Positions 41,353-49,977 of a DNA stretch of 52,551 bases are shown here, piece after piece. The stretch's first letter is position 1, and the number at the start of each line of letters is the position of its first letter. The stretch is taken from assembly GCA_044222065.1 (NCBI GenBank), contig JBGAOA010000027.1:1-52551 (forward strand), written 5' to 3'. The DNA comes from Candidatus Eiseniibacteriota bacterium. Lineage in GTDB: Bacteria > Eisenbacteria > RBG-16-71-46. The translations under genes and the position numbers were made by a program. Below the pieces are notes generated by a model that did not search any database, was not told where the DNA came from, and was given only the letters and a program-made list of their open reading frames with translations.

Positions 41353-43051
41353 GGCGGTCCTTGCCGAACGCGCGCTGCGTGATCTTCACGCCGGGCGGAC
41401 TCTGGCGGCGCTTGTACTCGGCGCGGTCCACCATGCGCACGACGCGCTCGACGGTCGCGAGGTCGAAGCCGTCCGCGGCGATCTCCTTCGGCGAGCGGTC
41501 TTCCTCGACGTAGCGCTGCAGGATCGGATCGAGCACTTCGTAGGGCGGCAGCGAGTCCTGGTCGGTCTGGTTGTCGCGCAGTTCGGCGCTCGGCGCGCGC
41601 GTCAGCGTGCCCTCGGGGATCACCGCGCCGCGCTCGTTGCGGTAACGCGCGAGCTCGTAGACGAACGTCTTGTACACGTCGCGAATCACGGCGAAGCCGC
41701 CGGCCATGTCGCCGTACAGCGTGCTGTAGCCCACCGACAGCTCGCTCTTGTTCCCGGTCGTCAGCACGAGCCAGCCGAATTTGTTTGAGAGCGCCATCAG
41801 GTAGTTGCCGCGGATGCGCGCCTGCAGGTTCTCCTCGGTGATGTCGGCGGCCTTCCCGCTGAACGCGGGCTCGAGCGCGCGCAGGTAGCTCTCGAACACG
41901 CCTTCGATCGGAACCGAGTAGAAGCGCAGGCCGAGCGCGCGCGCGAGCGCTTCGGCGTCGGCCTTGGAGGCGCCCGACGTGTAGCGCGACGGCATCGCGA
42001 CGCCGACCACGTGATCGGGGCCGAGCGCATCGGCGGCGACCGCGGCCGTGAGCGCCGAGTCGAGTCCGCCCGAGAGTCCGAGCACGACGGTGTCGAAGCC
42101 GTTCTTGATCACGTAGTCGCGCGTGCCGGTGACGAGCGCGTCGTACACCTCGGCGACGAGCGGGCGCTCGGGCACCGGGGCGCGCGCGGCGAGCGCGGGC
42201 TTGGGTGCCACGGACGCGATCGGCGGCAGCTCGATGCGCGCGGTCGGGAAGCCGTTGTCGAGCGCGCGGCCCTTCCGAAGCCGCGGATCGTGCAGCCGCT
42301 GGTTGAACACCTCGTCCAGGTCGAGGTCGGCGACGATCAGTTCCTCGACGAACGGCGCGCCCTCGGCGAGCACCGCGCCCTTCTCGTCGAGCACGAGGCT
42401 CGAGCCGTCGTACACGACTTCGTCCTGCCCGCCGACCAGGTTCACGTAGCACAGCACGACGAGGTTGTCCGACGCGCGCGTCTCGAGCATGCGCCGGCGT
42501 GCCTGACCCTTGCCCGCGTGGTACGGCGAGGCCGAGATGTTCAGCAGCACCTCGGCGCCGCCGCGGATCACCTGCTCCTCCATGACGGGGCCGCCCGGGT
42601 ACCAGATGTCCTCGCACACGTTCACGCCGATCACCGTGCGGTCGCGCACGAACACGGGGTTGCTCGTCGCCGGCATGAAGTAGCGGTTCTCGTCGAACAC
42701 GCCGTAGTTCGGCAGGTAGCGCTTGCGGTAGGAACCGGCCCACGCGCCGTCGTGCAGCACGGCGGCGATGTTGTACAGGTCCACGTCGCGCTCGATCGAG
42801 CCGACGACGGCGGTCAGGCCCTTCGTGTGCGACAGCAGGTCGCGCGTGCGCGCGATCGCGCGCTCGATGAACGACGGCTTCAGGAGCAGGTCCTCGGGCG
42901 GGTAACCCATGATCGCCATCTCGGGGAAGGCGACCAAGTCCACGGCCTGCTCGCGGGCGCGCGCGAGGAACGCGACGATCTTCTCGAAGTTGCCGTCGAG
43001 ATCGCCGACGGTGGCGTTGATCTGGGCGAGTCCGATCCGCAGGGGGCGCAT
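41351..43051 (-). CDS. nadE: glutamine-dependent NAD+ synthetase; homology ends at ~41351 with no stop until 40160
   Basis: Nitrilase-type triad (FPE, RKRYLPNY, CEDIW); GLSGGLDS, ENLQARIRG, TGNKSE, PSAEL and EYKRRQ. Confidence 0.95.
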
Positions 43052-43163
43052 GGGCGACGGATTCTTGTCGCAGCCGCTCCGGGGCGCAAGCCGGACCTGG
43101 ACAGGGCGTTCGGTCGCCCGGGCCCCGCGCCCACCCGGCTCCGCCTGCGGCAATGCGTCAAAT

Positions 43164-43234: not shown

Positions 43235-43795
43235 ATGAACCCGACCCGAATGCTCACGCTCGCGCTCCTGCCGATCCTCGCCGCCCCACTGCTCGCCGGA
43301 TGCGGCACGAGCCCGACCGCCCCACAGATCACGGCGGTCCAGGACACCGCCTCGTCCGTGATCCACACGCCCACGAAGTTGATTCTGCAGCAGATCGTGC
43401 TGCGGAAGTTCCCCGCGACGACGACCTCCGGAGACGACTGGGACTCGTCGCTGATCGTGAACGCCCGCAAGCCGGATCTCTACGTGGAGCTCCGGCAGGA
43501 GGGCTACACGCCGATCTACTCCTCCGACGTCCGCGAGAACGCGACCGCCGGGAACACGTACCGCTTCACCGAGGGCTACGGAACGCCGAACCTCCCGCTC
43601 GACGTGCCCTACGGATCGGCGTACCGCGTGTACGTCTGGGATCGCGACGTCGGCGGCGACAACGACCGGCTCGGCTGGATCACGCTGAATTTGCCGGCCG
43701 CCTATCCGCGGAACAACTCGTTCGAGGTGGACCACACGTACCGCGATTCGGCCGGACGCATCGAGGTCGAGATCATCGGGCAGTGGTCGTACTGA
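43235..43795 (+). CDS. lipoprotein with C2-like domain, paralog 1
   Basis: AAGGAGG RBS; LAGC lipobox; DWD..PDLYV and VWDRDVGGDNDRLG. Confidence 0.88.
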   Translation: MNPTRMLTLALLPILAAPLLAGCGTSPTAPQITAVQDTASSVIHTPTKLILQQIVLRKFPATTTSGDDWDSSLIVNARKPDLYVELRQEGYTPIYSSDVRENATAGNTYRFTEGYGTPNLPLDVPYGSAYRVYVWDRDVGGDNDRLGWITLNLPAAYPRNNSFEVDHTYRDSAGRIEVEIIGQWSY

Positions 43796-43888
43796 GGCGG
43801 GACGTCGTCTCGCGGCACGCGCCGAGCCCCTCGGCGCGTGCCGCCGAGGTCGCCCACGGCACCCGGAACGAGCCCGTGCCGCAAGTCC

Positions 43889-43930
43889 CGTGAGGGAATC
43901 CGTCCGGTTCCGGCGCTTCCAGGGGTGAAG
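43889..43930 (+). promoter_or_regulatory. conserved upstream motif, copy 2
   Basis: CGTGAGGGAATCCGTC-N18-GGGTGAAG, with the same spacing as copy 1. Confidence 0.55.
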
Positions 43931-43957
43931 CCCAGTTCACTACCGAAGGAGGACCCC

Positions 43958-44515
43958 ATGAACTCGAAGCGCATTCTCCCGCCCGCGTTCCTGACGATCG
44001 CCGCCGCCGCTCTGCTCGCCGGCTGCGGCAAGAGCCCCACGGCGCCCGAGGCGGCGGCGCTCCCGCCCGCGCCCGTGATCCACACGCCGTCGCGATTCCT
44101 GCTCCAGGAAATCGTGCTCCGGAAGTTCCCGGCGAAGACCCAGTCCGGCGAAGATTGGGACTACTCGCTCATCGCGAGCGCTCGCAGGCCGGACATCTAC
44201 GTGTACGTCCATCGAACCGGCCAACTGCCGCTCTACGAGTCGGACGAACGCACCGACGCGACGTCCGGCAACGTGTATCACTTCACTCGCGGCTACGGCA
44301 CCCAGGACCTTCCCACGTACGTGCCGTATACCAACGCCTACCGCATCTACGTGATGGACAGCGACGTCGGAGGCGACCACGACACGATCGGCTGGATCAC
44401 GCTCAACCTTCCCGCGATCTACCCGAACGACAACTCGTACGAGGTGGACCACGTGTTCAAGGACTCAGGCAATCGCATCGAGGTCGAGGTGAAGGGCAAG
44501 TGGGACTACGAGTGA
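43958..44515 (+). CDS. lipoprotein with C2-like domain, paralog 2
   Basis: AAGGAGG RBS; LAGC lipobox; DWD..PDIYV and VMDSDVGGDHDTIG. Confidence 0.88.
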   Translation: MNSKRILPPAFLTIAAAALLAGCGKSPTAPEAAALPPAPVIHTPSRFLLQEIVLRKFPAKTQSGEDWDYSLIASARRPDIYVYVHRTGQLPLYESDERTDATSGNVYHFTRGYGTQDLPTYVPYTNAYRIYVMDSDVGGDHDTIGWITLNLPAIYPNDNSYEVDHVFKDSGNRIEVEVKGKWDYE

Positions 44516-44672
44516 GCGAGATCCGCGACCGCGCGGGCCGGCCCGGGCCCGCGCGGCCGCCGGTCGGCAACCCGGGATGGACGGCGCCGCGCGATGTGAC
44601 TAAGTTCGCGCGACCGACGCCCCGCCCGGCTCTGATTCCGATCCGGGCCTCCCATTCGAGGAGTCCGCTCGC

Positions 44673-45242
44673 ATGGCCGACTCGCCTCACGGCACCGTCA
44701 CGAGGCTGCTCCGGGAGAGCCGCGAGGGGGACGAGCGCGCGCTCGATCGCGTCGTGCCCCTCGTCTACGACGAACTGCACCGGCTGGCCGAGCGGCAGAT
44801 GCGGGGGGAGAACGTGGCGCACACGCTCCAGCCCACGGCGCTGATCCACGAGGCGTACGCGCGTCTCGCCGGCACCGATCTCGACTGGAACGACCGCGCG
44901 CACTTCCTCGCCGTCGCGTCGCGAGTCATGCGGCGCGTGCTCGTGGACCACGCGCGCTCGGCGGGGCGCCAGAAGCGCGGCGGCGGCCGCGAGCGCGTGA
45001 CGCTCACCGACGCGATCGCGGCGGAATCGGGCGACTTCGACGTGCTCGACCTCGACGACGCGCTATCGCGGCTCGGCGCGCTCGACGAGCGCAAGGCAAA
45101 GGTCGTCGAGTTGTGCTACTTCGCGGGGCTCACGTACGACGAGATCGCGTCGGCGCTCGGGATCTCCGCGACGACCGTCCATCGCGAGCTGGCGTTTTCG
45201 AAGGCCTGGCTCCGGAGCCAGCTGGCCCCGCCATCGGAATAG
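44673..45242 (+). CDS. ECF sigma factor, kinase-associated (TIGR02999-like)
   Basis: VYDELHRLA, HTLQPTALIHEAY, MRRVLVDHAR..KRGG and YFAGLT. Confidence 0.93.
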   Translation: MADSPHGTVTRLLRESREGDERALDRVVPLVYDELHRLAERQMRGENVAHTLQPTALIHEAYARLAGTDLDWNDRAHFLAVASRVMRRVLVDHARSAGRQKRGGGRERVTLTDAIAAESGDFDVLDLDDALSRLGALDERKAKVVELCYFAGLTYDEIASALGISATTVHRELAFSKAWLRSQLAPPSE

Positions 45243-45279
45243 TCCGCCCGCGTGGGCGGCGCACGAGGGAGGCGACACC

Positions 45280-47811
45280 ATGGGCTCTCCGTCCTGGGAG
45301 CGACTGCAGGAACTCTTCCACCGCGCGAGCGAACTGCCTCCCGCCGAACGTCCGGCGTTCCTCGATCGCGAGTGCGGCGAAGACGCCGGCCTGCGCGCGG
45401 CGGTCGAAAAGTTGCTCGCGGCGGACGCGCCCGGCACGCCCTCGTTCGGCGGCGTGGTGGCCGACGCCGCGCGCGAATTCGTCGACACCGCCACGGTCGA
45501 GACACCGGGCGCCGAGATCGGGCCGTTCCGGGTGCTGCGGCACCTCGCGTCGGGCGGCATGGGCGAGGTCTATCTCGCCGAGCAGGAGGTTCCCGTCCGC
45601 CGCCGAGTCGCGCTCAAGACCATCAAGCGCGGCATGGACACGACCGAGATTCTCCGCCGCTTCGAATCCGAGCGGCATGCGCTCGCGCGCATGAACCACC
45701 CGAACATCGCGCGGGTGATCGACGCCGGCCGGACGTCCGACGGCCGGCCGTACTTCGCAATGGACTACGTGGACGGCCCTTCGATCACCGAGTACTGCGA
45801 CCGGAAGCGGCTCACGACGGACGAGCGTCTGCGGCTGATCCTGCAGGTCTGCGCCGGGATCCAGCACGCCCACCAGCAGGGCCTCCTCCACCGCGACATA
45901 AAGCCCTCGAACGTGCTCGTCGAGGAGGTCGACGGTCGGGCGGTGCCGAAGCTGATCGACTTCGGCATCGCGAAGGCGCTCGGCGACGATGCCGATCACG
46001 CGACGATGCTCACCGAAGTCGGGCACGTCATCGGCACGCCGGCCTACATGAGCCCCGAGCAGGCGGGCCTCGGTGTTTCCGACGTGGACACCCGCACGGA
46101 CGTCTACTCGCTCGGCGCGCTGCTCTACGAAGTGCTCGTCGGCGCGCCGCCGCTCGAGGCCGGCGCACGCGGGCTCGCGGCGGAGGAACTGCTCCGACGG
46201 CGTATCCGCGAGGAGGAGCCGCCGCGTCCGAGCGCGCGCGTGACGATGTCGTCCGACCGCTCGCGCACGATCGCCGACGCGCGGAGGACGACGTCCGCGA
46301 CCTTGTCGCGCACGCTGCGCGGCGACCTCGACTGGATCGTGCTCAAGGCGCTCGAGAAGGAGCCCGACCGGCGCTATCGCACGCCCGCCGACCTCGCGGC
46401 GGACGTCGGCCGCTACTTCGCGAACGAACCGGTCGTCGCCGGGCCGCCGTCGCGGCTCTATCGCATCCGCAAGTTCGCGCGCCGACATCGCGCGGCGGTC
46501 GTGAGCGCGTCGCTCGTCACGCTCGCGCTCGTCGCCGGCATCATCGGCACGAGCCGCGGGCTCGTGGAGGCGCGGCGCTCCGAGGAGCGAGCCAGCCAGG
46601 AGGCGGCCGCCGCGAACGCGGTCGCGAGCTTCATGAAGAACCTTTTCCTGGATCTCGATCCGTCGCGCTCGAACGGCCGCACGCCCGACGTGAAGGAGAT
46701 CCTGTCGCGCGGCGCGCGGCGCATCCGCACCGAACTGAGCGCGCAGCCGCAGGTGCGCGCGCGCCTGCTCGGTTCCATCGGCGACGTCTACCGCGGGATC
46801 GGCGTGTACGACTCGGCGCGCGGCCTGTCGGTCGAGGAGCGGGAAATCCTGCAGGGGCTCGGCGACACGCTCGGCCTGGAGTGGGCGGACGCGCTCCAGC
46901 GGCAGGGCAGCGTGCACCTGCAGGTCGGGTCGGCCGACTCGGCGCGCGCCGCGTTCCGGCGCGAGCTGGAGATCCGTGAGGCGCAGAAGCAGCCGGACGA
47001 CTACAAGATCGCGAACACGCTGCGGCAGCTCGCGGGCATCGAACTCCGCGAGCACCACTTCCGCGAAGCGCAGCCGCTCTACGAGCGCGAGCTCGCGCTG
47101 CGGGAGAAGGCGGTACCGCGCAACGACGAGCTGGTCATTCAGACGGCGGCGAACCTCGGCATTTCGTTCATCCAGCAGGGCGACTTCGCGCGCGCTCGTC
47201 CGCCGCTCGAGCGGGCGTACGCCTACTACGTCGCCCTGCCCGGGCCCCCGTCCATGAACATCGGGATTGCGAGCGGTCTGCTCGGCTCGCTGTTCATGGC
47301 GCAGGGGGTACAGGACTCGGCGGAGGTCATGTTCCGGAAGTCCTACGACGTGCTCGCGCCCATGCTCGGCCCCGACCACATGGACATCGCCCACACGTGC
47401 ATCGACATCGCGTCGGCGATGGTGGAGCAGGGCAAGGCCGATTCCGCGGAAGTGTGGTGCCTCAAGGCCCGGAGCACGTTCGCGCGCTCGATGAGTGACG
47501 ACGCGGGCGGCGTCGGGCTCGCGGACGGGCTGCTCGGCGAAATCTATCGGCGACAGGGGAAGCTGAAGCTGGCGCGCGAGACGCTCGAGCGCAGCCTCGT
47601 CGCCGAGGAGAAGGCGTGGGGCCTGAAGGACGAACGCCTCGCGAACACGCTCGTGACCTACGCCGCGTGCCTGAAGGATCTCGGCGCGAAGGCCGAGGCC
47701 CTGCGGGCCTCGCAGCGGGCGCTCGACGTGTTCGTGGAGCTGCTGCCCGAAGGGCACACCATGCGAACGCGCGCGCAGACGCTGGTCGACGAACTCGGCG
47801 CGGCGCGCTGA
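45280..47811 (+). CDS. membrane Ser/Thr protein kinase with extracytoplasmic TPRs
   Basis: GGMGEVY, VALK, HRDIKPSN, DFG and GTPAYMSPE; one TM segment; TPR region. Confidence 0.95.
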   Translation: MGSPSWERLQELFHRASELPPAERPAFLDRECGEDAGLRAAVEKLLAADAPGTPSFGGVVADAAREFVDTATVETPGAEIGPFRVLRHLASGGMGEVYLAEQEVPVRRRVALKTIKRGMDTTEILRRFESERHALARMNHPNIARVIDAGRTSDGRPYFAMDYVDGPSITEYCDRKRLTTDERLRLILQVCAGIQHAHQQGLLHRDIKPSNVLVEEVDGRAVPKLIDFGIAKALGDDADHATMLTEVGHVIGTPAYMSPEQAGLGVSDVDTRTDVYSLGALLYEVLVGAPPLEAGARGLAAEELLRRRIREEEPPRPSARVTMSSDRSRTIADARRTTSATLSRTLRGDLDWIVLKALEKEPDRRYRTPADLAADVGRYFANEPVVAGPPSRLYRIRKFARRHRAAVVSASLVTLALVAGIIGTSRGLVEARRSEERASQEAAAANAVASFMKNLFLDLDPSRSNGRTPDVKEILSRGARRIRTELSAQPQVRARLLGSIGDVYRGIGVYDSARGLSVEEREILQGLGDTLGLEWADALQRQGSVHLQVGSADSARAAFRRELEIREAQKQPDDYKIANTLRQLAGIELREHHFREAQPLYERELALREKAVPRNDELVIQTAANLGISFIQQGDFARARPPLERAYAYYVALPGPPSMNIGIASGLLGSLFMAQGVQDSAEVMFRKSYDVLAPMLGPDHMDIAHTCIDIASAMVEQGKADSAEVWCLKARSTFARSMSDDAGGVGLADGLLGEIYRRQGKLKLARETLERSLVAEEKAWGLKDERLANTLVTYAACLKDLGAKAEALRASQRALDVFVELLPEGHTMRTRAQTLVDELGAAR

Positions 47812-47878
47812 CGTCGTGCTCGCTCGGGTCCGCCCCTGTGCGCTCCCGGGTGACGCGAGTGGAGCGCGCGTCCGCGCC

Positions 47879-47912
47879 AAACGAAAGCGCCCGGCTCTGT
47901 GGCCGGGCTCTC
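47879..47912 (-). terminator. intrinsic terminator
   Basis: GCCCGGC/GCCGGGC stem followed by GCTTTCGTTT on the minus strand. Confidence 0.65.
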
Positions 47913-48151
47913 CCGTTCCTTCGCGAACGCGGTGCCCGCGTTCGCCGGTCAAGAGGAAAGGCGCCGCACCCGGGTCTTCAGGTCCCTTGGCGTCGCACTT
48001 TCGACCTCGCGGGCTCAGGGGGCTCTCGGCCCCGGTCTTTACTGAGCGTCGCGCGGCTCTCGACACATCACCGGACGGCTCTCGGCCGCCCTTCGGCGAC
48101 CAATGGCTGCAAGAGCCGTTCCGCGCGGCGCCGAGCGCTCGGACGCCGCGC
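47879..48151 (-). ncRNA. putative ~270-nt structured non-coding RNA
   Basis: Contiguous helices between a sigma70-like promoter and a terminator; no credible ORF. Confidence 0.45.
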
Positions 48152-48156
48152 AAATG

Positions 48157-48186
48157 ATTGTGATGGCGCGGCTGGAGCGGTCTCAA
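48157..48186 (-). promoter_or_regulatory. sigma70-like promoter
   Basis: TTGAGA-N18-CACAAT on the minus strand. Confidence 0.45.
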
Positions 48187-48331
48187 GCGGAATCTGCGCG
48201 TTCACCCCGCGGCGGGCGATTTGTAGCCTCCCGGCTACACCCGCGCGAAATTCCCGACCGCCCGGGCGGGGTGCACGGTCCGGGGCGCCCGGCGACTCCC
48301 GGGGGCCGCGGCTCGGGCGCGCGGTCCGCGC

Positions 48332-49834
48332 TCAGCCCTCGGCCGGGGGCCGCGGTGAGGCGGACGGCATCAGGCCCGCGAGCACGGCCGCGGCGAGTGC
48401 CGTGACGGCCATGACCGCGAAGGCGTCGTGCGTCGCGCGCGCGAAGGCCTCGCGGCCCGCGGCATCGAGCGTGCCCGAGGCGAGCGCGCCGCCGCCGTGG
48501 GCGGCGTAGCGGCTCGCGACGATCGCGGCCGTGGCCGCGGCGCCGGCCGAGATGCCGAGGTTGCGCATCGTCGCCTGGAGTCCCGAGGCGAGGCCGAGCT
48601 GCGCGTGCGGCACGCTCGAGAGCACGGCGCTCGTGTTCGGCACGGTGAAGATGCCGAGCCCGACGCCGACGAGCGCCATGCCGCCGAGCAGGTGCCACGG
48701 TTGCGGCGTCACGCCCACGTGCATGAGCACCGCGAAGCCCGCGGCGGCGAGCGCGAGGCCCGTCACGCCGAGCGGCCGCGAGCCGACGCGATCCGAGCCG
48801 CGCCCGGCGAGCGGCGCGATGAACAGCGCCGCGAGCGGCAGCACCGCGAGCCAGCGGCCGCTCCTGCCCGCGTCGAAGCCGAGCACGTCCTCGAGGTAGA
48901 GCGGCAGGTGGAACCCGATCGCGATCGAGATCGCCTGGCCGAGGAACGTGAGCGTCGCCGCGATCCCGAGCCGGCCGCGCAGGAGCCGCACCGGCAGCAG
49001 CGGATTCGGCGAGCGCGCCTCGCGCGCCGCGAACGCGACGAGCAGCGCGAGGGCGAGCGCGAACGCGGGCCACACCGTCGTGTGCGTCCAGCCGAGCGCG
49101 GGCCCGCGGGACAGCCCGACGAGCGCGAGCACGAGCGAGCCGAACCACAGCGCGGCGCCCGCCGCGTCCACCGGGGTGCGCGCCGCGGCCGGCCGGTCTT
49201 CGGGAATGCGCGCGCGCACTTCGCGCAGCGCGAGCAGGCCGAGCGGCAGGTTGATCAGGAAGATCCAGCGCCACGACAGCGAGGCCACGATGAGACCGCC
49301 GAGGGGCGGCCCGAGCGCGAGCCCGACGCCGACGAGCGCGCCGAACGCGCCGAGCGCCTTGCCGCGCTCTTCCGGCGGGAAGTTGCCGACCAAGAGCGCC
49401 GAGCTGTTCGACGTCATCATCGCCGCGCCGACGCCCTGGAGCGCGCGCGCCGCGACGAGCGTCGCGAGCGACGGCGACACGGCGCACAGCGCCGAGGCGG
49501 CCGTGAACGCGCCGAGCCCGGTCGCGTAGACGCGCCGCCGGCCGAGCGCGTCCGCGAGCCGGCCGAACGCGAGCAGCAGGCCCGTGATCGTGGCGACGTA
49601 GGCGAGCACGACCCACTCGATCGAGGTGATGGGCTTGCCGAACGCGCGCGACAGCGTCGGCAGCGCGATGTTCACGATGCTGATGTCGAGCGTCGCCATC
49701 ACGGTGCCGAGCGCGAGCGCGGGGAACACCCGCCAGCGCGGATAGGCGCCGTTCGATCCAACGGACGCGGCGGCCCCGCGCCAAGAGGAGCCGCCGCGCG
49801 AATCGGTCTCGGAGGTCGTACGCGGCGCGCTCAT
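48332..49834 (-). CDS. MFS drug/H+ antiporter (DHA2, EmrB/QacA-like)
   Basis: LDISIVNIALP, GRLADALGRRR, RALQGVG and WRWIFLINLPLG. Confidence 0.92.
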   Translation of the reverse strand: MSAPRTTSETDSRGGSSWRGAAASVGSNGAYPRWRVFPALALGTVMATLDISIVNIALPTLSRAFGKPITSIEWVVLAYVATITGLLLAFGRLADALGRRRVYATGLGAFTAASALCAVSPSLATLVAARALQGVGAAMMTSNSSALLVGNFPPEERGKALGAFGALVGVGLALGPPLGGLIVASLSWRWIFLINLPLGLLALREVRARIPEDRPAAARTPVDAAGAALWFGSLVLALVGLSRGPALGWTHTTVWPAFALALALLVAFAAREARSPNPLLPVRLLRGRLGIAATLTFLGQAISIAIGFHLPLYLEDVLGFDAGRSGRWLAVLPLAALFIAPLAGRGSDRVGSRPLGVTGLALAAAGFAVLMHVGVTPQPWHLLGGMALVGVGLGIFTVPNTSAVLSSVPHAQLGLASGLQATMRNLGISAGAAATAAIVASRYAAHGGGALASGTLDAAGREAFARATHDAFAVMAVTALAAAVLAGLMPSASPRPPAEG

Positions 49835-49977
49835 GGCGGCCCGCAGGATAGCCCAGCGTTCGCGGAGCGAGGAATCCTCCCCCCGCGGCGGGAATTTCGT
49901 TGACGCCGTGCGACGGGAGTCTCGAAAATCTTCCGCCACCCCCACCGGCCACGACCCTCCTTCCCCCGGAGTCGCTC

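Follow-up and report, generated by a model that had tools for sequence, protein, structure and literature searches.

What is encoded on the minus strand between positions 48186 and 47879 of contig JBGAOA010000027.1? The window analyzed here is the whole stretch of 52,551 nucleotides (nt) of this contig, from assembly GCA_044222065.1 of a Candidatus Eiseniibacteriota bacterium, a 4.2-Mb metagenome-assembled genome (MAG; G000) that is 94% complete. An initial annotation of the window had placed here an undescribed structured noncoding RNA (ncRNA) with its own promoter and terminator. We find that 48151-47879 on the minus strand is an independent ncRNA gene of about 273 nt which has its own promoter and terminator and belongs to a family outside Rfam. 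The individual elements listed in the initial annotation are all present in the sequence where it had placed them, and its core idea is supported. Considering all of the evidence together, a new stand-alone structured-RNA gene is very probably the best explanation for this locus, and how the RNA acts is graded separately below. The RNA is a well-supported new RNA class. The gene and its signals are as follows.

47879..48151, minus strand: ncRNA gene, about 273 nt, with its start predicted near 48151 (6-7 nt past the -10 hexamer) and its end at the T tract at 47879
48181..48186, minus strand: -35 hexamer TTGAGA, from the promoter scan
48157..48162, minus strand: -10 hexamer CACAAT, from the promoter scan
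47879..47917, minus strand: intrinsic terminator P8 and U tail, with AACGGGA/UUUCGUU pairing that extends the hairpin

Both signals that had been assigned to the RNA were recovered by scans. TTGAGA-18-CACAAT at 48186-48157 on the minus strand is the single promoter site found in 47500-48600, with 0.0 sites expected in shuffled sequences. The terminator scan returned GCCCGGC...GCCGGGC at 47908-47889 followed by a T tail, and three terminator-like sites were found as compared with 0.3 expected. The promoter is of the sigma-70 type and is conserved: 54 of 62 homologs keep NTGNNN-17/18-(G/C)ACAAT at an unchanged distance, with a -10 sequence of GACAAT in 32 and CACAAT in 22, and in 52 of the 54 the promoter lies 3-5 nt ahead of the aligned start of the RNA. 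The P8 helix is 94-95% paired in the two homolog alignments described below (A3 and A5), its sequence is nearly invariant, and the U tail is invariant. Near-identical terminators (GCCCGG..CCGGGCGCTTTCGTTT) are also present at other loci of related genomes, namely L014 (G025:C23) and L013/L019 (G022), and thus the conservation of the P8 sequence may partly reflect a terminator consensus used throughout the clade.

How widely is this RNA distributed? Searching with blastn produced partial matches in 17 of 61 relatives, mostly to the 3' part of the RNA. Since these matches were few and partial, covariance models were used instead. The first model (R1) contains four hairpins only and was built from 12 aligned full-length homologs (alignment A1), while the second (R2) is a fuller model of 97 pairs. 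The copy in the window aligns over its full length to both, with 163.3 bits for R1 (47879-48152) and 133.7 bits for R2 (47879-48154). R1 finds the RNA in 85 of the 89 genomes of the Candidatus Eisenbacteria family to which the window belongs. These include members of all 28 genera, and among the 44 high-quality genomes 42 have the RNA. There is nearly always one full-length match per genome, and the additional matches come from the terminator, a palindrome that is also matched on the opposite strand. R1 finds no RNA in the remaining four family genomes, which are 65-92% complete. Since nadE was not found in these four genomes either, the RNA locus is probably unassembled there.

We used R2 to survey 151 genomes of the phylum. 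The RNA was found in 57 of the 59 family members other than G000, and in 91 genomes from 16 other families of the phylum nothing convincing was observed, with one weak match of 138 nt. Searching two sister families with laxer filters (13 genomes, including the unpublished G038) gave only matches with E values of at least 0.006. These weak matches to R2 (E 0.006-0.26) were rejected as noise, as the core motifs are missing from them and none has nadE or an MFS or ABC-2 gene in its vicinity. Likewise, when R2 was run with filters off on the regions upstream of nadE in five sister-family genomes, the best E value was 0.016, at a site without the core motifs. A pattern scan for the core motifs across one genome per species produced at least 119 loci. 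Among the 80 matches listed, 22 are full-length members, all of which lie on contigs of Eisenbacteria type. The other 58 come from many phyla and match the pattern alone; with 17 fixed bases and 596 Gb of sequence, chance would give about 200 matches, and these 58 were not retained as members.

Two observations concern individual members of the family. Two full-length copies of the RNA are present in G032 (C14 and C5) and in G110 (C237 and C491). Each copy in G032 lies between an MFS gene and a nadE gene, and the second nadE is 49% identical to the query, so that either the block is duplicated in G032 or the bin includes a second strain. Five RNA-bearing contigs (L068, L079, L080, L088 and L190) carry titles that name Saccharimonadaceae, Methylomirabilota, Verrucomicrobiia, Limnocylindria or Acidiferrales; they belong to the same GTDB family, and they are probably mislabelled MAGs.

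Does the RNA have a defined fold? The 274-nt stretch 48152-47879 has a minimum free energy (MFE) of -156.1 kcal/mol. Shuffled versions of the stretch fold at -130.9 ± 5.3 kcal/mol, which corresponds to z = -4.73, and none of 200 shuffles is as stable. The fold is thus better than that of shuffled sequence, a comparison on which the initial annotation had staked its proposal. The MFE structure of the window contains the 5' hairpin 48151-48123, the GGUCGCC-GAAG-GGCGGCC helix, a multibranch domain, the 10-bp hairpin 47945-47923 and the terminator.

We examined covariation in a sequence-only MAFFT alignment of 62 distinct homologs (A3). Base-pair probabilities of 61 of the 62 sequences, leaving out one that contains N, were averaged and projected onto this alignment, and the resulting nested consensus consists of 100 pairs in 12 helices. 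In A3, 76.9% of cells are paired, as compared with 40-48% when the partners are slid by 1-3 columns. Changes on both sides are observed at 69 pairs and in 532 cells, as compared with 200-290 cells in the slid controls. The covariation score is 0.230, as compared with no more than 0.106 in the controls, and none of 500 shuffles attains any of the observed values. A model-fitted alignment (A5), which is biased toward the structure, gives 81.9% paired cells, 682 double-change cells as compared with 184-232 when slid, and a score of 0.301. The 12-helix structure is therefore backed both by homologs and by covariation, the two further points on which the proposal had been made to depend. The best independent test of the structure is the long-range helix P4 (CAAGAG/CUCUUG), which forms in the unconstrained MFE structure of 55 of the 62 sequences with no alignment used. 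P4 (helix 5) is 84-89% paired, and it exchanges AU for GC pairs at four positions (for example, AU 36 / GC 17 and UA 17 / GC 22). An all-against-all scan of alignment columns places the annotated pairs first. Two other long-range pairings were considered and rejected. Pairing of CUUG in the P2 strand with CAAG in the P6 loop, suggested by RNAalifold on 12 sequences, has variants that are uncompensated when A3 is inspected by eye, and it is missing from the column scan. The other, in which the 5' CUUGC would pair with the central CAAGAG, gave way to the covarying P4.

Taken together, the alignments show a conserved family architecture that consists of a 5' three-way junction, a core three-way junction closed by P4, a hairpin P7 and the terminator P8. 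The parts ahead of P8 are listed here.

48064..48151, minus strand: 5' domain, the P1/P2/P3 three-way junction in the family (MFE folds of homologs, helices 1-4, R2 alignment)
48109..48122, minus strand: P2 tip, with conserved GGAACGG (48122-48116) and invariant CUUGC (48113-48109)
48073..48091, minus strand: P3 hairpin GGGCGGC-CGAGA-GCCGUCC, with a C(N)GNGA-type loop (R2 alignment)
48057..48063, minus strand: P4 5' strand UCGAGAG, which pairs with 47955-47949; CAAGAG in most homologs
47949..47955, minus strand: P4 3' strand CUCUUGA, the partner of 48057..48063
48005..48056, minus strand: P5 arm, a long helix with the bulge GUAAAGA (48042-48036) and the apical P5b GGGGC-CGAGA-GCCCC (48033-48019) (helices 6-8 in A3, 6-9 in A5)
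47956..48003, minus strand: P6 arm, with the family apical loop GGC-A(C/A)CAAG(C)-GCC (helices 9-10 in A3, 10-11 in A5)
47923..47945, minus strand: P7 hairpin, 10 bp with loop GCA (helix 11 in A3, 12 in A5)

Within the 5' domain, P1 closes the junction and P2 is a long hairpin with a family tip of GGAAYG and the invariant CUUGC strand; the invariant alignment columns at this tip are G31 G32 ... T41 T42 G43 C44. P3 (helix 4) is 80-84% paired, both sides change in eight of its nine pairs, and about 46 of the 62 homologs have a C-N-G-N-G-A type of loop there. In the core, the P5 bulge (A/C)GUAAAG is almost invariant across the 62 homologs, and P5b is 94-99% paired with swaps among UA, CG and GC pairs. 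The loop of P5b is CGAGA in 30 of the 62 and C(N)GNGA in most of the others, and the two C(N)GNGA loops, those of P3 and P5b, are of the GNRA type. The P6 loop of the window is the variant GGGACCUGAAGACC. Pairing in P7 is 79%, with double-sided changes at 9-11 pairs. The window itself is atypical in its 5' domain, where the strong local hairpin 48151-48123 competes with the P1/P2 pairing of the family; this hairpin is peculiar to the window genome. Of the helices drawn in the initial annotation, GCUCAG/CUGAGC, GGGGC-CGAGA-GCCCC and the 47945-47923 hairpin are conserved, whereas the 5' hairpin, the GAAG hairpin and GCCGCGC/GUGCGGC are not conserved in homologs. In place of the GAAG hairpin, what homologs conserve in the 5' half is the hairpin GGGCGGC-CGAGA-GCCGUCC (48091-48073).

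Could the locus instead be a small mRNA, or a known RNA such as 6S, signal recognition particle (SRP) RNA, RNase P, transfer-messenger RNA (tmRNA) or a riboswitch that has diverged past recognition? Open reading frames (ORFs) do occur on both strands of this GC-rich locus, and a 9-codon ORF is present that closes at a conserved TAA. However, an in-frame ATG is found in only 14 of 62 homologs, homologs measure 260-293 nt and differ in length by steps other than multiples of three, ORFs overlapping the RNA have no match in Pfam, and the substitutions in helices are compensatory. By these comparisons the RNA has no conserved reading frame. With respect to known RNAs, Rfam 15 at gathering thresholds gave no match across the whole window, the outcome of a check that the initial annotation had suggested. 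At E <= 10, nine weak matches were obtained in 47700-48450, the best of which (E 0.21) covers the terminator hairpin only, and at E <= 0.5 there is no match in 20 homologous loci (65 kb). ARAGORN found no tRNA or tmRNA in the window. The G000 genes for 6S, RNase P, SRP and tmRNA were located above Rfam cut-offs on other contigs, namely C26, C120, C80 and C98, respectively, with the canonical 6S gene scoring 63.9 bits; the initial annotation had likewise seen no hallmarks of tmRNA, SRP or RNase P at this locus. A coding or diverged-known-RNA origin is already largely refuted and retains almost no probability.

Is the RNA present in RNA libraries? The 18 RNA runs listed contain a fraction of 0.19-0.47 of the sampled words from a 601-nt stretch, of which the RNA makes up 0.46. 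Contigs from four RNA runs of four studies cover 47924-48138 (depth 12), 47850-48123 (depth 7.5), 47860-48132 (depth 3.2) and 47910-48118 (depth 2.7), and a further contig covers 47783-47933 (depth 2.5). When contigs of the four runs were placed on 47500-48600, none was found on 47500-47758 or 48166-48600, and none crosses the promoter. Of the discrete transcript anticipated in the initial annotation, we can thus say that just the RNA stretch is present in contigs of four studies with its flanks bare, in assemblies that are unstranded and have imprecise ends.

Several points weigh against a stand-alone gene whose product is a compactly folded, trans-acting RNA. The RNA-library contigs are unstranded assemblies that give no strand, exact ends or level, and DNA carry-over is possible. 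Two of the contigs extend 19-29 nt beyond the T tract, and these may include the 3' end of the transcript of a convergent kinase gene. With respect to structure, pairing is weakest in P1 and P2 (48-66%), owing to a 5' domain that differs in sequence and length among homologs, and the 5' domain of the window is itself off the consensus. The all-against-all column scan gives no pseudoknot or tertiary contact that is supported by covariation. The covariation controls are slid columns and shuffles, which are not phylogeny-aware as R-scape is. The mechanism that we propose below for a trans-acting RNA is drawn from anatomy alone. Finally, among the 48 loci with at least 640 nt of downstream sequence, tblastn finds 44 in which the RNA is followed on its own strand by nadE, which encodes glutamine-dependent NAD synthetase, and such linkage would suit a cis or local role.

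Given this linkage, the possibility that the RNA is a leader of nadE is worth testing against the gene neighborhood, which in the window is as follows.

48332..49945, minus strand: MFS transporter gene, the upstream neighbor (Pfam MFS_1, E 8e-58)
45280..47811, plus strand: Ser/Thr kinase-TPR gene, convergent with the RNA (Pfam)
44673-45242, plus strand: ECF sigma gene (Pfam)
about 41400..43110, minus strand: nadE (tblastn 41654-43108; Pfam CN_hydrolase and NAD_synthase)

In 43 of 51 loci, the RNA is preceded on its own strand by a permease gene of the MFS or ABC-2 type. Using the longest flanking ORFs together with Pfam badly undercounted nadE in this GC-rich DNA, which was corrected with tblastn. 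In the window, nadE lies about 4.8 kb downstream of the RNA, and the ECF-sigma/kinase module and about 2 kb more lie between them. The stretch 43240-47811, which carries the ECF sigma gene, the kinase-TPR gene and about 1.4 kb without Pfam matches between the RNA and nadE, is found in the window genome only and looks like an insertion into a conserved ABC2-MFS-RNA-nadE block. The terminator of the RNA is scored as such on the plus strand too, where it lies about 40 nt past the stop codon of the kinase gene. Matches of R1 and R2 on the reverse strand at 47853-47918 fall in this terminator region. P8 is probably a bidirectional terminator common to the two convergent units that also ends the kinase gene, and the RNA-library contig at 47783-47933 fits a terminator shared in this way.

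As a cis leader, the RNA would be a riboswitch or attenuator of nadE that senses, for example, an NAD-related metabolite, with P8 deciding read-through. Such a role would fit the start of nadE, which often lies no more than about 130 nt from the RNA terminator, and the terminator at the end of the RNA, and the many invariant unpaired nucleotides are aptamer-like. Sister-family genomes also carry a terminator-bearing noncoding stretch before nadE, unrelated in sequence. However, in 39 of 47 loci the interval from the RNA terminator to the nadE ATG contains a promoter-like TTGCnn-17/18-CAnAnT element. The -10 sequence of this element ends 9 nt ahead of the ATG in 32 of the 39 loci having the element (window about 43080-43110; L032-L115), and no Shine-Dalgarno sequence is visible for the nadE genes of the family. 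With a promoter-like element ending so close to the ATG, nadE looks separately transcribed and leaderless or nearly so. Moreover, in the window the convergent kinase gene comes next, nadE is far off, and the RNA is intact and its stretch covered by RNA-library contigs; the RNA is also kept without nadE nearby in L056, L097, L099 and L100. Since nadE has a promoter-like element of its own and the RNA persists away from it, we read the RNA as an independent gene and not as the leader of nadE. No conserved antiterminator pairing was seen by eye and the column scan yields no alternative pairs, although no test was dedicated to this, and no match was obtained to NAD+ or other riboswitch models. A cis leader therefore appears very improbable indeed, and the linkage may represent either a functional tie to NAD synthesis or mere inherited gene order.

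A functional tie could also take a broader form, that of a ligand-sensing or catalytic RNA linked to NAD synthesis, which might bind an NAD-pathway metabolite, for example, and act on the adjacent leaderless nadE unit. The action could be regulated read-through, interference at the nadE promoter, or trans action on the nadE mRNA or enzyme. Such a role is compatible with the linkage to nadE, with the invariant junction nucleotides, which are aptamer-like, and with the presence of two GNRA-type loops. A simple cis switch is disfavored by the separate nadE promoter and by the survival of the RNA where nadE is distant, but these two points do not speak against a role in trans or a local one. We consider this broader tie rather doubtful. 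If it were true, the RNA would be a new metabolite-linked RNA class unrelated to the two known classes of NAD+ riboswitch.

Other noncoding stretches were seen in sister families. In sister family f3, a different terminator-bearing noncoding stretch lies ahead of nadE at L124:2990-3330 (minus strand) and L125:1040-1450 (plus strand). The two stretches share a block like CCAGGGAAGGCC..GCCACGGA, nadE there has a Shine-Dalgarno sequence, and neither stretch has a match to Rfam or R2; this is possibly another nadE-associated RNA. In the sister-family genome G048, L116:1430-1700 consists of tandem units of about 93 nt, each with a long hairpin, with a terminator at the end, and is unrelated to the RNA studied here.

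If the RNA is a stand-alone gene, how might it work? Two junction domains, GNRA-type loops and invariant unpaired motifs are typical of ribozymes, riboswitch aptamers and the RNAs of ribonucleoproteins, and not of linear base-pairing small RNAs (sRNAs). We tentatively propose that the RNA may fold compactly and act in trans by binding a protein or a small ligand, a proposal that we hold to be plausible while giving it somewhat less than even weight. The two GNRA-like loops would dock into helices, and the invariant unpaired P2 tip, the CUUGC strand, the GUAAAGA bulge and the P6 loop would together offer the protein or small ligand a surface or pocket.

The same unpaired motifs could be read as seeds. 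In a base-pairing regulatory sRNA, the P2 tip, the GUAAAGA bulge and the P6 loop would pair with mRNAs and the remainder would serve as a scaffold. The stand-alone gene with a promoter and a terminator, the short invariant unpaired loop motifs and a lineage-specific range like that of most sRNAs are all consistent with this. However, with its 12 covarying helices the RNA is far larger and more structured than usual sRNAs, and Hfq was not found in the 94%-complete G000. A crude, unrestricted prediction of duplexes with nadE 5' ends gave a mean z of about 0 and was set aside as uninformative. Overall, base pairing as the main activity is unlikely.

The repeats in the RNA raise the further possibility of a protein sponge, which the initial annotation had named as an example together with a ribozyme; the present data neither favor nor oppose the latter. 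A sponge would be of the CsrB/RsmZ kind, in which repeated loops titrate an RNA-binding protein such as CsrA. As the initial annotation had it, CGAGAGCC recurs three times, within 64 nt of the minus strand (48084-48077, 48062-48055 and 48028-48021), and AAGACC(C)GG recurs twice (48039-48031 and 47978-47970). In the whole window, CGAGAGCC has 11 copies on both strands as compared with 8.9 expected, and it is the clustering rather than the total count that is non-random. Two of the three copies correspond to the similar loops of P3 and P5b, each together with its 3' stem, and the genome contains a csrA gene. CsrA sites need GGA, and the P2 tip usually presents GGA in its loop. However, a census of tips in the 62 sequences shows GGU or GGC at this place in 10, only two repeated loops exist and both are without GGA, and the third copy of CGAGAGCC is the paired P4 strand, which is CAAGAG in most relatives. 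The C(N)GNGA motif shared by the two loops is of the GNRA type, which is more often used for RNA-RNA contacts, and known CsrA-type sponges carry many more sites. A sponge is therefore very improbable, and a compactly folded, trans-acting RNA is the proposal that we carry forward.

To our knowledge, large and intricately folded bacterial RNAs are rare. RNase P, tmRNA, 6S RNA, riboswitches, OLE and raiA each opened a piece of biology. We know of no cultured member of this phylum and of nothing that has been learned about its RNA-based regulation. The present analysis defines a molecule of about 273 nt that is suited to in vitro transcription and to probing of structure, ligands, self-cleavage and protein partners, and its constant place beside nadE provides a first hypothesis on function. 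The RNA family could enter Rfam and the annotation pipelines used for Eisenbacteria MAGs. Its narrow taxonomic range limits its general impact.

How does the RNA compare with known systems? An M23 motif once found upstream of nadE is given a passing mention in one paper (PMC5737381). Our search of the full-text literature on ncRNAs or sRNAs of Eisenbacteria and on structured RNAs of nadE, which covered main texts, found nothing on the RNA studied here. Two classes of NAD+ riboswitch are known, the nadA motif (class I) and the pnuC motif (class II). Like these, the RNA adjoins a gene for NAD biosynthesis and has an intrinsic terminator at its end. Unlike them, it is about three times larger and matches no model, nadE has its own promoter after the terminator, and the RNA persists without an adjoining nadE.

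The RNA resembles 6S RNA (RF00013) in being a stand-alone RNA of a few hundred nt that is present in nearly every genome of its clade and is recovered from RNA libraries. It differs in that it is made of junctions and hairpins and is not a rod with a central bubble, and a separate canonical 6S gene is present in the genome. With the CsrB/RsmZ sponges it shares a repeated motif shown in hairpin loops, but there are two such loops only, without GGA, and the third copy of the repeat is a strand of a paired helix.

OLE, ROOL, GOLLD and HEARO are orphan large structured bacterial ncRNAs that came from comparative genomics. The raiA motif RNA is described as a further RNA of this orphan kind (PMC10861870). 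The RNA studied here differs from these five in that it has no match in Rfam 15, is smaller than OLE, ROOL and GOLLD, and is limited to one family of one uncultured phylum. It shares with them a stand-alone gene, many covarying helices, invariant unpaired nucleotides and GNRA-type loops, and such RNAs are named for a neighboring gene. By analogy, the RNA resembles these orphan large structured RNAs and would stand closer to them than to a linear base-pairing sRNA.

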